From assembly GCA_016783345.1 (NCBI GenBank), contig JADHWT010000001.1, positions 1 to 39,680 of the forward strand: a stretch of 39,680 bases of DNA, given 5' to 3'. This stretch comes from Candidatus Omnitrophota bacterium (GTDB taxonomy: Bacteria > NPL-UPA2 > BS750m-G34). Numbering within the stretch: position 1 is the first letter of the stretch; each line of letters opens with the position of its first letter. The notes under the pieces are model-generated. The model saw nothing but the letters and a program-made list of their open reading frames with translations. It did not search any database and was not told the origin of the DNA. The position numbers and the translations under genes are program-made. Positions 2,773-22,215 of the stretch are shown one piece after another.

Positions 2773-2801
2773 AAGTGTTAGCAAGAAAGGAGGAAAGGAG
2801 A

Positions 2802-3260
2802 ATGCGAGTAGGAATAATTGGTATAGTTGTAGTAGGGTTGGTTTTTTTAGGAAGTAGTTTTTGTCTGGCTAACGGGGGAGCCCCTGTTACAAAAGAGGTG
2901 ACCAAAGAAACGGTAGGCGAAGCCACCTCTGCGAAGCAAGGGGTAGGGACAACAGGTGCTACGGGAGGCGCTATTAAAAGTCCTGGTACGGCTACATTCC
3001 TGTCAGTCCTTTGCCCGGGACTCGGACAGATCTATAATGATGATAGTCTAATCAAGGTCCTTATTATGGGTGGTATAGAAGGTCTTTGCTGGGGTCTGGT
3101 TGGCGGAACAGATATGGAGGCATTAGGTATTTTTGGGCTGGCAATGGGAAGGGTTGTGAGCTCTGTAGACGCCTATTATACAGCTGTTGAAAAGAACAGA
3201 GGCCTCTCTCTTCAGATAGATAACGAAAAGGTGGTCGTAGCTATAAAGGGGGAATTTTAA
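2802..3260 (+). CDS. Small secreted/membrane protein with PGLGQIYN motif (paralogue of 21832-22215)
   Basis: 152 aa. Start moved from ORF-track 2775 to ATG 2802, with AAGGAGG at 2787-2793. It has an N-terminal hydrophobic signal/TM, a Gly/Thr-rich linker, LCPGLGQIYNDD, a second hydrophobic segment, VDAYY, and a C-terminal ...GEF. Resemblance to DUF5683-type proteins is from memory only. Confidence 0.7.
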   Translation: MRVGIIGIVVVGLVFLGSSFCLANGGAPVTKEVTKETVGEATSAKQGVGTTGATGGAIKSPGTATFLSVLCPGLGQIYNDDSLIKVLIMGGIEGLCWGLVGGTDMEALGIFGLAMGRVVSSVDAYYTAVEKNRGLSLQIDNEKVVVAIKGEF

Positions 3261-8751: not shown

Positions 8752-8780
8752 TTGCCAAACATATTTCTATAGGGTACAAT
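8752..8780 (+). promoter_or_regulatory. Sigma70-type promoter for the nagB leader
   Basis: TTGCCA (8752-8757), 17-nt spacer, TACAAT (8775-8780). The predicted TSS is about 10 nt upstream of the conserved leader element. Confidence 0.5.
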
Positions 8781-8796
8781 ATGATAGTTATATGGT

Positions 8797-8918
8797 GTAT
8801 ATCCCTTGTCGCAGAAGATGTTGGGTAAAATTTCTTCGACTTTTTACCCAACGCGACTTCGGGATTAATTCCGACATACAAGTTATGTCACATAACTTGT
8901 GTCGTCATTAAAAGGAGG
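8797..8918 (+). promoter_or_regulatory. Conserved two-hairpin 5'-leader element, copy 1 (upstream of nagB)
   Basis: P1 is TCCC-TT-GTCGC (8802-8812) paired with GCGAC-TTC-GGGA (8853-8864), extended by an inserted hairpin GTTGGGTAAAA/TTTTACCCAAC (8820-8852). P2 is CGAC-AT-ACAAGTTATG-TCA-CATAACTTGT-GTCG (8872-8904). TCATTAAAAGGAGG follows. It is near-identical to 21733-21824, with compensated changes in P2. Confidence 0.65.
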
Positions 8919-8923
8919 ATGAA

Positions 8924-19192: not shown

Positions 19193-19997
19193 AATTTCTG
19201 TCTTTGAGAGGGGATACCTCTACGGCGACGGTATTTTTGATACAATGCGCAGTTACAACGGCAGGATTTTTAGATTTGAAGACCATATGGAAAGATTGAA
19301 AAAGAATGCGCGCGCTTTGAGGATCCCTGCATCAGGGTCTCGTGAACTTAAGGGCCTTATTTTAAAGGCGCTCAAAAAGAATAGATTAAAAGATGCTTAT
19401 ATCAGGGTTAGTCTTTCCCGCGGGAAAGCCGGGCTCGGTCCCGCACCGGTTAAAGGAGTAGAGCCGTCTCTTACTATAATTGTGCGTCCTTCAAAGGTTT
19501 ATCCGCGGCATTTTTACAGGAAAGGTGTAGAGATATTGATATCTTCCACGCGCAGGATGCCTCCTTGCGCCCTGGACGGAAAGATAAAATCCATGAATTA
19601 TCTGAATAGCATCCTGGCCAGGGAAGAGGCCACGAGAAGCAAGGCTTTTGAGACAATACTACTTTCGGAAGAAGGGTACGTAACTGAAGGGACATGCAGT
19701 AATATCTTTATCGTAAGAGACGGGAAAGTTATTACTTCTCCGTCATTCCTAGGGACGTTAGAGGGCATTACCAGGAAGGTAGTTCTGGAGATAGCAGAGA
19801 GATTGGGTATAAAGATAGAGTTGACTCCATTCACTAACTATGATATTTATACTGCAGAGGAATGTTTTCTTACAAGTACCGGTATAGAAGTTATGCCAAT
19901 AAGAATAGTTGACAGAAGGATTATAGGTAAGGGCGCACCCGGCAAGATAACACAGCTTATCAGAGAAGAGTTTTTAAACGAAAGGAGCAGGAGATGA
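19173..19997 (+). CDS. pabC: Class IV aminotransferase, probably aminodeoxychorismate lyase
   Basis: 274 aa. YGDGIFDTMRSYNG, Lys context DGKIKSMNYLNSILA, EG..SNIF.V and TGI.PI are present. It overlaps pabB by 20 nt. Confidence 0.7.
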   Translation: MKLSLSKISVFERGYLYGDGIFDTMRSYNGRIFRFEDHMERLKKNARALRIPASGSRELKGLILKALKKNRLKDAYIRVSLSRGKAGLGPAPVKGVEPSLTIIVRPSKVYPRHFYRKGVEILISSTRRMPPCALDGKIKSMNYLNSILAREEATRSKAFETILLSEEGYVTEGTCSNIFIVRDGKVITSPSFLGTLEGITRKVVLEIAERLGIKIELTPFTNYDIYTAEECFLTSTGIEVMPIRIVDRRIIGKGAPGKITQLIREEFLNERSRR

Positions 19998-21322
19998 AGG
20001 TAAGGGATGCTAAAGACGTAAGAAAAATTGTAAAAGAACTGGACGTGAAATTTATCCGCATCTGGTTTACAGACGTATTGGGATTCCTTAAAGGTCTTAC
20101 AATTACTGTAAGCGAGTTAGAAAGAGCCATGGAAGATGGAATGGGGTTTGACGGCTCTTCTATTGAGGGATTTGCCCGCATTGAAGAGAGTGATATGATT
20201 GCCAGACTTGACCCCAAAACTTTTCAGATTATGCCGTGGAAAGAAAACGGTCTTACAGTAGCGCGGCTTTTTGCCGATATCTTCAAGCCGGATGGTAAGC
20301 CATTTGCGGCTGACCCGCGCTATATACTTAAAAAGAACCTTGAACGTGCGAGTAAAATGGGCTACACCTACTATATTGGTCCGGAACTTGAGTATTTTTA
20401 TTTTACTGATAAACAATCCACAAAATTTCTGGATAGTGGAGGTTATTTTGATGTCACCACATTTGACGTAGCAAGATCATTGCGCAAGCAGACTGTTACT
20501 TGCCTGGAGTCTCTGGGAATTCAGGTGGAATACAGTCACCATGAAGTTGCGTCTTCTCAGCATGAAATTGATCTTAGATATAAGGATGCCATGACCATGG
20601 CTGACCAGGTTATGACTTATAGGTTTACAGTAAAAGAAGTAGCCCGATTAAATAATTGTTACGCTACCTTTATGCCAAAACCGGTCTTTGGAATAAATGG
20701 CAGCGGTATGCATACACATCAGTCTCTATTTAAAGGAAACAGGAATGCATTTTTTGACGCCAAAGATAAATATCATCTTTCCAGCGTGGGTAAAGGTTTT
20801 ATTGCAGGGATACTTGCTCACGCCCGTGAGATTACTTCTGTAACCAATCAGTGGGTTAATTCTTATAAGAGATTGGTTCCGGGATATGAAGCCCCTGTCT
20901 ATATCACCTGGGCCCAGAGGAATCGTTCTTCACTCGTAAGAGTGCCCATGTATAAGCCAGGAAAAGAACACGCTACACGCGTAGAATTCCGCAGTCCGGA
21001 TCCTGCCTGCAATCCATATCTTGCATTTTCTGCAATGCTTGCAGCCGGCCTTGAAGGCATAGAGAAAAAATATAAACTACCGGATCCTGTTCCGCACAAT
21101 ATTTTCGAGATGAGTGAAAAGGATAGGCAAAAACTTAATATAGAGAGTCTTCCAGAAGATCTTTGGGAAGCTATCCATCTTACGGAAAAAAGCAAGTTGC
21201 TTCAAAAGGCCTTAGGTGAGGAGCTCTTTGCATATTTCATCCGCAATAAAAAGATGGAGTGGGACGAATACAAAGGACAGATAAGCCAATACGAATTAGA
21301 TAAATATTTACCCATTCTTTAA
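19994..21322 (+). CDS. glnA: Glutamine synthetase type I
   Basis: 442 aa. FDGSSIEGF, GPELEYF, GSGMHTHQSL, SYKRLVPGYEAP, NRS.LVR.P and R.PD...NPYLA are present. The start overlaps the pabC stop (ATGA). Confidence 0.93.
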   Translation: MKVRDAKDVRKIVKELDVKFIRIWFTDVLGFLKGLTITVSELERAMEDGMGFDGSSIEGFARIEESDMIARLDPKTFQIMPWKENGLTVARLFADIFKPDGKPFAADPRYILKKNLERASKMGYTYYIGPELEYFYFTDKQSTKFLDSGGYFDVTTFDVARSLRKQTVTCLESLGIQVEYSHHEVASSQHEIDLRYKDAMTMADQVMTYRFTVKEVARLNNCYATFMPKPVFGINGSGMHTHQSLFKGNRNAFFDAKDKYHLSSVGKGFIAGILAHAREITSVTNQWVNSYKRLVPGYEAPVYITWAQRNRSSLVRVPMYKPGKEHATRVEFRSPDPACNPYLAFSAMLAAGLEGIEKKYKLPDPVPHNIFEMSEKDRQKLNIESLPEDLWEAIHLTEKSKLLQKALGEELFAYFIRNKKMEWDEYKGQISQYELDKYLPIL

Positions 21323-21391
21323 TGAGCACGTGGCTTATGTCTGGCATAAGTCACAGGTGCGAATTATGAAACGATTTTCTTATTGACAAAA

Positions 21392-21709
21392 ATGTTTCGT
21401 ATGTTATTCTGCAATAGGGGAATAATATTTTTTTTAAGCCTTGTGATTCTGGCTGGCTGCGCTACCCCGCGCCGTACTGGTATTGGGCCGCTTGTACCTG
21501 TAGAAAAGAAAAAGGCAACTATTACTACTGATGATTCCCCGCGATATCTCAGGTATATTGTCCAGAGAGGAGACAGCCTCTGGAAGATTTCACAGATGGC
21601 ATATAATGATTCAGGAAAGTGGAAAAAGATATTTGAGGCCAACAGGGATAAAATTAAAGACGTCAAAAGCCTTAAGCCGGGAGAGATTATAATTATTCCA
21701 ATAGAGTGA
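21392..21709 (+). CDS. LysM-domain lipoprotein
   Basis: Lipobox LVILAGCA. LysM region YIVQRGDSLWKISQMAYNDSGKWKKIFEANRDKIKDVKSLKPGEIIIIP. ATG 21392 is preferred over ORF-track TTG 21383, which sits in a TTGACA box. Confidence 0.8.
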   Translation: MFRMLFCNRGIIFFLSLVILAGCATPRRTGIGPLVPVEKKKATITTDDSPRYLRYIVQRGDSLWKISQMAYNDSGKWKKIFEANRDKIKDVKSLKPGEIIIIPIE

Positions 21710-21732
21710 TTGGAAGTGTCGAAGGTGAAAGA

Positions 21733-21824
21733 GTATGTCCCTTGTCGCAGAAGATGTTGCGACTTCGGGATTAATTCGAGCATACACTTTATGAAACATA
21801 AAGTGTGCTCTCATTAAAAGGAGG
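21733..21824 (+). promoter_or_regulatory. Conserved two-hairpin 5'-leader element, copy 2 (upstream of the PGVGQYYN membrane protein)
   Basis: P1 is TCCC-TT-GTCGC (21738-21748), loop AGAAGATGTT, then GCGAC-TTC-GGGA (21759-21770). P2 is GAGC-AT-ACACTTTATG-AAA-CATAAAGTGT-GCTC (21778-21810). TCATTAAAAGGAGG follows. Confidence 0.65.
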
Positions 21825-21831
21825 TGGAAAA

Positions 21832-22215
21832 GTGAGAAAGTTAGTAGTTATTTTAGCGGTTGTTCTTCTTTTAGGTTTTGCCCAGGATGTCCTGGCTGAC
21901 GGTGCGGGATGGGTTCCTCCAGCTGGAGAGAAGGATCCGAATACTGCACTGGTCCTTTCAGCTCTCCTCCCCGGAGTGGGTCAATACTATAATGACCAGC
22001 TGTATTATAAAGGTATAGCTTTTGGGCTGGCGGAAGCATTAGGATGGGTAATTGTAGGCGCAACTTCTGACGAGTGGTTTGGTTTTACTATAATTTGCGT
22101 TAACCATATAGCAAGCGCAGTTGACGCATATGTCCAGGCTGGCAGGGTCAATCAGGGAGTAAGTCTCAATATAACACCTGAGGGTCCGGTCTTAGCCTAT
22201 AGCCATAGTTTCTAA
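21832..22215 (+). CDS. Small secreted/membrane protein with PGVGQYYN motif (paralogue of 2802-3260)
   Basis: 127 aa. GTG 21832 follows AAAAGGAGGTGG. It has a signal-like N-terminus, LLPGVGQYYNDQ, a hydrophobic segment, VDAYV, and a C-terminal ...HSF. Confidence 0.7.
   Translation: MRKLVVILAVVLLLGFAQDVLADGAGWVPPAGEKDPNTALVLSALLPGVGQYYNDQLYYKGIAFGLAEALGWVIVGATSDEWFGFTIICVNHIASAVDAYVQAGRVNQGVSLNITPEGPVLAYSHSF

Follow-up and report, generated by a model that had tools for sequence, protein, structure and literature searches.

A structured repeat flush with Shine-Dalgarno sequences across Candidatus Omnitrophota, and its copy upstream of a DUF5683-family gene

The window analyzed here is a 39,680 nt stretch of a Candidatus Omnitrophota genome in which a short structured segment lies between a gene for a LysM-domain protein and a gene for a DUF5683-family membrane protein. 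The initial annotation treated this segment as the second copy of a novel cis-regulatory RNA whose first copy precedes nagB, and suggested that the nagB, LysM and envelope gene neighbors are compatible with a cell-wall or amino-sugar-related signal. The question raised by the locus is thus whether the segment is a leader that senses such a signal, or whether it is a member of some other kind of structured family.

Copy 2 occupies positions 21737-21816 and folds as two hairpins, P1 and P2, with a gap of 0 nt to the following Shine-Dalgarno (SD) sequence (Table 1). The P1 hairpin, G21737-U21771, has an outer stem GUCCC/GGGAU (21737-41/21767-71), a UU/UUC internal loop, an inner stem GUCGC/GCGAC (21744-48/21759-63) and a 10 nt loop, AGAAGAUGUU, at 21749-58. 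The P2 hairpin, U21772-A21816, runs from UAAU/AUUA through a UC/UC internal loop, GAGC/GCUC, an AU bulge and 9-10 bp to an AAA loop. The 16S rRNA of this genome ends in ...GGAUCACCUCCUUUCUAA, and its tail ...CACCUCCUUUCUAA is complementary to the SD run that directly follows the element and feeds the GTG start codon, as had been described. Folding of the two window copies is more stable than that of shuffled sequences (z of -4.3 and -5.5, with 0 of 200 shuffles as good), and a covariance model built from the copies of this genome scores copy 2 at 108 bits (E 5e-25). The SD sequence is unpaired in the minimum-free-energy fold, and the predicted unpaired probability from SD to start codon is 0.59 (n=8) as compared to 0.46 in 104 other genes with strong SD sequences (p 0.03).

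Table 1. Positions of copy 2, its neighbors and related elements in the window
Feature	Position	Strand	Basis or remark
P1 hairpin, short form	21737..21771	+	sequence, fold, covariation
P2 hairpin, phylum-wide conserved core	21772..21816	+	covariation within genome and in other genomes
Extended Shine-Dalgarno AAAGGAGGUG	21817..21826	+	complementary to 16S 3' tail CACCUCCUUU
DUF5683-family membrane protein, signal peptide, GTG start	21832..22215	+	Pfam PF18935, E 4e-8
LysM-domain protein, 105 aa, stop TGA 21707-21709	21392..21709	+	Pfam LysM, E 6e-8
glnA	19994-21322		upstream of LysM gene
Variable C-poor, purine-rich, SD-like tract UUGGAAGUGUCGAAGGUGAAAGAGUAU	21710..21736	+	5' of copy 2
Antisense P2-only relic UAAUUCGCAC...GUGCUCAUUA	21320..21366	-	covariance model, 32.7 bits
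Copy 1, long form with P1b, upstream of nagB	8793..8919	+	alignment, covariance model

Copy 1 and copy 2 align throughout, the former having a 30 nt extra hairpin in its P1 loop and the two differing by five doubly compensated base pairs in P2. Thus copy 2 is the shorter version with a simple P1 loop, and its P2 substitutions are compensated, both as initially annotated. Copy 1 is preceded by a promoter-like TTGCCA-17-TACAAT at 8752-8780. Neither a sigma-70-like promoter nor a terminator was found between the LysM stop codon and P1, which agrees with the earlier view that copy 2 has no promoter of its own and sits in a polycistronic setting; copy 2 lies inside a probable glnA-LysM-DUF5683 transcription unit. 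A paralogue of the DUF5683 gene, at 2775-3260, encodes a 41% identical DUF5683 protein and, as previously noted, lacks the element, with no covariance model match there. Two other assemblies encode an identical DUF5683 protein in the same synteny, have the LysM gene called at the same position and carry copy 2, which is thus present in at least three assemblies.

The sequence immediately 5' of the element behaves differently from the element itself. Tracts like UUGGAAGUGUCGAAGGUGAAAGAGUAU, of differing lengths, are found 5' of all copies, and between congeners this tract is ~8% different versus 0.3% in the element. When the tract of copy 2 is compared with its counterpart in another strain (L261:2887-2905), there is an 8 nt indel along with several substitutions even though the flanking genes are identical. 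In the same strain comparison, the first base of P1 and one loop base are switched to the variant found in other copies, a pattern that is conversion-like. A separate observation concerns the antisense P2-only relic located between glnA and the LysM gene, of which the terminal TTAATGA provides the TAA stop codon of glnA and which adjoins a purine run, AAGAAUGGG, on its own strand.

We explored how widely the element is distributed in the window's own assembly (798 kb, 59% complete) by pattern and fuzzy searches followed by the covariance model. This revealed 14 canonical copies in 0.8 Mb (13 exact matches and further fuzzy ones), to which the model added a 15th, diverged copy on contig C43 as well as the antisense relic. 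All full copies are in sense orientation and, with the exception of one at the tmRNA locus, each is flush with the SD sequence of a different gene. These genes are ribH (inside the rib operon), an SDR gene, an anti-sigma antagonist (STAS), a DegT aminotransferase, fhs, folD, a gene coding for a 117-aa protein, a small membrane protein gene downstream of groEL, the cold-shock gene csp, ferredoxin, clpC, nagB and DUF5683. The exceptional copy stops 4 nt short of the mature tmRNA 5' end, and none of the other tmRNA loci examined has an element, so that this arrangement is found only in the window's genome. Copy 2 is an ordinary family member. The proposed link between nagB, the LysM gene and the envelope gene through a common signal does not survive this result, since the same element precedes many unrelated genes and tmRNA.

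Comparison of the copies shows a modular structure. The P1 sequence is invariant in all 14 canonical copies, nine of which have P1b, a 30 nt hairpin in the P1 loop that occurs independently of P2 type. P2 exists as five sequence types with compensatory changes, and modules are shuffled among copies. Specifically, the closing pair of P2 covaries perfectly as Y:R (8 UA and 6 CG). Within the genome 98.7% of alignment cells are paired and 11 pairs exhibit double changes, eight of which are in P2, a pattern matched by 0 of 500 shuffles. Unlike what would be expected of a MITE, the copies of this genome have no terminal inverted repeats, and target duplication is not consistent; tandem arrays and inverted doublets were not found in this genome either. 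At the target sites the picture is mixed, with AAAGGAG duplicated at the DegT junction and no duplication at the tmRNA junction.

Several other functions that such a segment might encode were considered and set aside. A leader peptide was rejected: some copies have an ATG-GAG...GAT-TAA frame, but the upstream ATG is absent in most and the AUG of P2 is often ACG. We did observe mini-ORFs in P2 types A, B and C that are in frame with the UAA/UGA of CAUURA (window 21792-21818 and others), with products MKHKVCSH, MSHNLCRH and MYTLFHKLWSH before the stop codon. These are probably due to chance since roughly half of the copies across the phylum have ACG in place of the AUG. An internal sigma-70 promoter was also rejected as a general feature, as inspection gave no convincing hexamers and P2b varies with compensation. 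TATAAT does occur directly 5' of P1 in some copies (C8:26489, C53, C46), not in copy 2, and the head-to-head pairs seen in other genomes leave some room for a promoter. Likewise a CsrA-type GGA-loop site was rejected; the P1 loop AGAAGAUGUU has AGA rather than GGA, and the loop is not conserved outside of the genus.

Turnover of the element is evident from a comparison with G001, an assembly of another species of the same genus in which seven loci are comparable, with flanks that are 82-96% identical. The copy 2 locus is absent from the G001 assembly and is therefore not one of these seven. G001 has four copies, all at loci that are also filled in the window's genome (csp, the 117-aa gene, nagB and clpC), and lacks the element at the other three (tmRNA, DegT and STAS) even though the genes themselves are present. 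These three empty sites retain the purine run or SD, as AAAGGGGGCG at tmRNA (GAAAG|GGGGCG), AGAGGAGAAAAT at DegT and AAAGGAGGTTTTATG at STAS, and the difference between filled and empty sites stops exactly at ...CAUUR. This indicates that the SD pre-exists, and that the element inserts at the 5' edge of an SD-like run instead of supplying a ribosome-binding site. At the 5' side the junction is irregular, and there it is the C-poor, SD-like tract that is found.

Where both congeners have the element, it is nearly unchanged. Three orthologous pairs exhibit only 0-1 substitutions in ~290 nt of element, as compared to 15 changes in ~193 nt of their adjacent intergenic flank, such that the element evolves ~25 times slower than its own flanks. 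Each of these pairs nonetheless differs by the same 30 nt P1b, and at the csp locus the two genomes have different P1 and P2 modules, again including the P1b difference. The few point changes together with the module swaps fit frequent ectopic conversion, strong constraint, or both. An assembly artefact is an unlikely cause of the P1b indels since a read is longer than the repeat core (no more than 80 nt) and synteny holds on either side. As for the G001 bin itself, it contains two different tmRNA genes (C114 and C52), of which only that on C52 is orthologous to the smpB-ssrA locus of the window's genome, and the bin may therefore be mixed.

The initial annotation had named a recent segmental duplication with no conservation in other genomes as an outcome that would speak against it, and the element is indeed kept elsewhere. 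The covariance model has matches in 8 of 13 genomes of the window's phylum, with 3-25 copies each and in three of six families, and no matches in the remaining five; one genome outside of the phylum has weaker, P2-centered matches. The record L185 (the same as contig C61 of G004) is titled Nitrospirota bacterium, yet its genome groups with the window's phylum and has 25 copies, and this label is probably wrong. When public records were scanned with an exact P2-foot pattern, AATTCGCAC...GTGCTCATTRA, the P2 core was found in at least 120 contigs from more than 100 metagenome-assembled genomes (MAGs), mostly titled Candidatus Omnitrophota. Among 131 sequences from other genomes, in an alignment that is fitted to the model, 96% of cells are paired (98-99% in P2) and 35 of 36 pairs exhibit double changes. 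Those parts of P2 left free by the search pattern hardly vary (ACUUAYG/CRUAAGU), both the UC/UC loop and the bulge are retained, and the conserved bases are mainly in the P2 helices. P1, on the other hand, remains a long near-perfect hairpin with a sequence that is unrelated between lineages, both loop and stem being replaced, while the P1b loop AAAUUCUCUNCGAUAAUUU is seen again in different families. Nearly all stem pairs are Watson-Crick, and on the sense strand G-U/U-G pairs outnumber A-C/C-A pairs by 85 to 35 (2.4% versus 1%), an excess that gives modest support to selection on RNA. A search of Rfam 15, including ribozymes, TD-1/TD-2 and leaders, returned tRNAs alone at the gathering score, and relaxing the threshold to E 10 added nothing but chance miRNA and snoRNA matches; a full-text literature search found no description of the element. 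The view that this is a novel structured element thus holds, with covariation present and no matching Rfam family.

Position relative to genes is also maintained across the phylum. An ORF of at least 50 aa starts within 30 nt of the P2 foot in 157 of 201 copies (78%) as compared to 24% at random positions, and the spacing to the start codon is bimodal, either 9-17 nt with an SD or 0-3 nt without one. Some 30 family members (loci L161, L227, L124, L219, L220 and others) have a start codon 1-3 nt after the P2 foot and no SD, and unambiguous starts of this class are those of glmS, rplN, rplT, tpiA and prfA. Downstream genes also include PPDK, ACAD and response regulators, with hundreds of unrelated genes overall. 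Several genes carry a copy in two to four genomes, among them ribH in four genomes of three families; besides conservation, this could reflect repeated insertion at the same strong SD. Arrangements that are absent from the window's genome do occur elsewhere, with head-to-head pairs in G006, G011 and G019 and tandem units in G012 (C16) and G008 (C87).

No mobilizing enzyme was found for the element among the Y1-transposase-like and small GIY-YIG genes that were examined. Of 14 genomes, 10 have Y1_Tnp (PF01797) genes, four of these 10 being among the five without the element, and three incomplete genomes with the element have no such gene; there is no model match within 1.5 kb of six Y1 genes. 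A REP-associated tyrosine transposase (RAYT) link finds no support in the window's genome, where Y1 genes are bracketed by other repeats, the gene at C34:1062-1853 being flanked by GGGTCGGACCACG inverted repeats and a fragment on C39 by AAAAGGGCGCTGTCCCCTTTT. Nesting of small GIY-YIG genes in a P1-like palindrome is likewise unsupported, with only one model match in 14 loci. The GIY-YIG gene at C5:4794-5071 of the window's genome is without P1-like arms, and one on contig C9 of G004 is merely upstream of an ordinary copy. Nor does the element resemble an integron attC site. Its feet are YAAU/AUUR with no AAC/GTT and, by inspection, no RYYYAAC/GTTRRRY cores, and its copies are dispersed before housekeeping genes. 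Two other repeats were observed during this analysis. A second family, AAAAAGGGCGCTGTCCCCTTTTT, has 11 copies in the window's genome (C39:4001-4380 and 10 other sites), two of which lie on either side of an IS200-like Y1 transposase fragment that is truncated; the arrangement resembles a classical REP/RAYT pair and has no relation to the leader element. A small hairpin, GCCGCAGGCTTTAGCCTGCGG, is found just after stop codons at different loci (C8 at ~29860 in the window's genome; C37 of G001), and may be another short repeat or a terminator-like motif.

The reading that we favor, with somewhat more than even confidence, is that the element is a modular, orientation-specific repeat that is spread by recombination and co-transcribed with the genes it precedes, acting as a generic stable hairpin barrier that leaves the SD exposed and not as a ligand switch. 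A family member consists of a fast-evolving near-perfect P1, an optional conserved sub-hairpin P1b and a conserved irregular P2 whose 3' foot, always in sense, is followed after 0-3 nt by a purine run, be it a AAAGGAGG-type SD, a start codon or the tmRNA 5' end. Both spread and uniformity probably come from DNA-level copying and ectopic conversion; copies are gained or lost between congeners and modules are swapped at the same locus, with the 5' edge of a pre-existing SD-like purine run as the probable target, such that the SD would be landing site and not cargo. At the window locus, we infer that transcription of the glnA-LysM-DUF5683 unit runs through copy 2, making it an intercistronic leader. 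Its two stacked hairpins are predicted to self-fold, leaving the 10 nt SD single-stranded, and as a stable barrier they could protect or delimit the RNA of the downstream cistron, either as a 5' stabilizer or as a processing boundary. In this reading copy 2 senses no metabolite. Several observations do not sit easily with this explanation. The sequence and irregularities of P2 are conserved across the whole phylum, which is unusual for a selfish repeat, and no mobilizing enzyme, terminal inverted repeat or consistent target duplication was found. The element evolves slowly relative to its flanks, and the same genes carry copies in distant genomes. In addition, a passive hairpin should block starts located 1-3 nt from P2 without an SD, as in the ~30 genes mentioned above.

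Some of these same observations would be accounted for if the element were a host-encoded, phylum-wide post-transcriptional signal, whose reader, be it a dedicated RNA-binding protein, an endoribonuclease or the ribosome, recognizes the invariant P2 foot (UAAU-UC-GNNC / GNNC-UC-AUUR). Operon RNA would then be cut at the foot to give short-leader or leaderless mRNAs, or the 30S subunit would be recruited or positioned there, with copies kept because they are needed and their uniformity reflecting co-evolution with the factor. Such a signal would fit the phylum-wide conservation of P2 sequence and mismatches, the strict sense orientation, flush position and bimodal spacing, the SD-less class of housekeeping genes, the repeated occurrence ahead of ribH (three families) and of further genes (two or three genomes each), the scarcity of point changes when congeners are compared and the surplus of G-U pairs on the sense strand. 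We consider it unlikely, though not negligible, given that one copy precedes tmRNA, where translation is irrelevant and where the other loci examined have none, that a close congener lacks the element at three of seven loci yet keeps the genes, that the antisense relic, tandem arrays and inverted doublets resemble the dynamics of repeat elements, and that five genomes of the phylum have no matches and no candidate factor emerged. The specific form in which P2 is a phylum-specific general expression signal read by a dedicated Omnitrophota factor at the UAAU-UC-GNNC foot seems a little less probable again. Were it true, the element would be an analogue of mitochondrial tRNA punctuation or would position the ribosome directly, translation of SD-less housekeeping genes with an AUG 1-3 nt from the hairpin would be explained, and mobility would be a way of installing the signal. 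A further position, that the element acts purely at the DNA level, with hairpins serving as single-stranded or cruciform DNA for a recombinase or transposase (REP/RAYT-like, IS200/IS605-like or attC-like) and with an RNA fold that is a by-product having no effect on expression, we judge to be quite improbable. It would have CCTCCTTT as the strand-transfer target, and it draws on the almost purely Watson-Crick stems, the long perfect P1 palindrome of unrelated sequence in each lineage, inverted doublets that resemble REPINs, the Y1_Tnp genes in most of the genomes, and a fixed orientation and junction at a short purine/pyrimidine motif that fit target-specific single-strand transposition. Against this, none of the Y1_Tnp genes examined has the element at its flanks, their distribution among genomes does not clearly follow that of the element, the attC-type cores are missing by inspection, the flush-to-start bias and G-U excess suggest selection at the RNA level, and predicted SD exposure is higher than in other genes.

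Two further readings have very little to recommend them. A small self-cleaving ribozyme that trims leaders would suit the location at RNA boundaries and the high copy number in each genome, and cleavage giving leaderless mRNA would match the SD-less class. It is nonetheless a very improbable explanation considering that no ribozyme family matches even at the most permissive threshold, that the conserved nucleotides are almost all in helices, that P1 is freely replaceable and that short forms have no conserved unpaired core. Lowest of all we place a riboswitch-like RNA sensing a metabolite or signal of amino-sugar or cell-wall metabolism, as the initial annotation had entertained. That reading drew on the structure and covariation of a leader that precedes nagB and has a LysM gene nearby, but the downstream genes are functionally unrelated, do not form a coherent set and include tmRNA; P1 sequence is not conserved phylum-wide and there is no conserved unpaired binding core. 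Moreover, no expression platform is apparent, with no terminator, an SD predicted to be accessible and no comparably stable alternative fold that would sequester it, and the element comes and goes between congeners. The gene associations, the tmRNA copy, the lack of an expression platform and the presence/absence polymorphism together exclude an amino-sugar or cell-wall reading of this leader.

The closest described analogues of the hairpin-barrier repeat that we favor are Neisseria REP2 and the Borrelia IR repeats, followed by REP/BIME/REPIN and BOX elements. Neisseria REP2 (CREN) and Borrelia IR-A/IR-B are dispersed repeats of ~120-150 bp with two stem-loops and no terminal inverted repeats, located immediately upstream of unrelated ORFs in sense orientation so as to form the 5' UTR (PMC3184786). 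REP2 is said to carry its own promoter, ribosome-binding site and ATG. The Omnitrophota element is like these in its sense position upstream of ORFs, its two internal stem-loops and its lack of terminal inverted repeats. However, it ends just 5' of a pre-existing SD, it is phylum-wide and not genus-restricted, it is modular with an optional P1b and exchangeable P2 types, and it has no sequence similarity to either. With REP/BIME/REPIN sequences it shares the character of many-copy extragenic palindromes that form mosaic tandem arrays and inverted doublets, and it can also be likened to them as sequences that are co-transcribed and can affect mRNA stability. REPs differ by being mostly at the 3' ends of genes, in either orientation and genus- or species-specific, while the Omnitrophota element has a fixed orientation flush to the SD; REPs also flank their RAYT gene, whereas the RAYT-like genes here are flanked by other repeats. 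BOX elements (boxA-boxB-boxC in Streptococcus pneumoniae) and ERIC/IRU sequences are modular, strongly folding and transcribed, with a variable number of modules and a location that is often near the 5' ends of genes. Unlike the Omnitrophota element, they have no fixed register to the SD, have a narrower host range and are unrelated in sequence. Stabilizing hairpins and RNase III sites are known from the 5' UTR of E. coli ompA, the leaders of B. subtilis aprE and ermC, and the R sites of phage T7. By analogy with these, the element probably works like a stabilizer, as a stable stem-loop upstream of an exposed SD that would delimit and protect the downstream cistron. The difference is that such hairpins are single-locus or phage-specific, while the Omnitrophota element is a self-propagating family for which processing is only postulated.

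For the copy 2 locus, these results remove a false lead, as there is no amino-sugar or cell-wall riboswitch at this position. In its place stands a structured repeat that had not been described before, occurs phylum-wide and keeps an unusually exact register to the ribosome-binding site. The SD itself appears to be the landing site, and in some lineages the element abuts start codons without an SD. If the element is only selfish, then it would be a clean example of target-specific spread into the translation-initiation regions of very small genomes, and it would also keep giving rise to spurious riboswitch predictions and to broken contigs in Omnitrophota MAGs. A functional element would instead amount to a novel way of processing operon RNA or recruiting ribosomes within an uncultured phylum.
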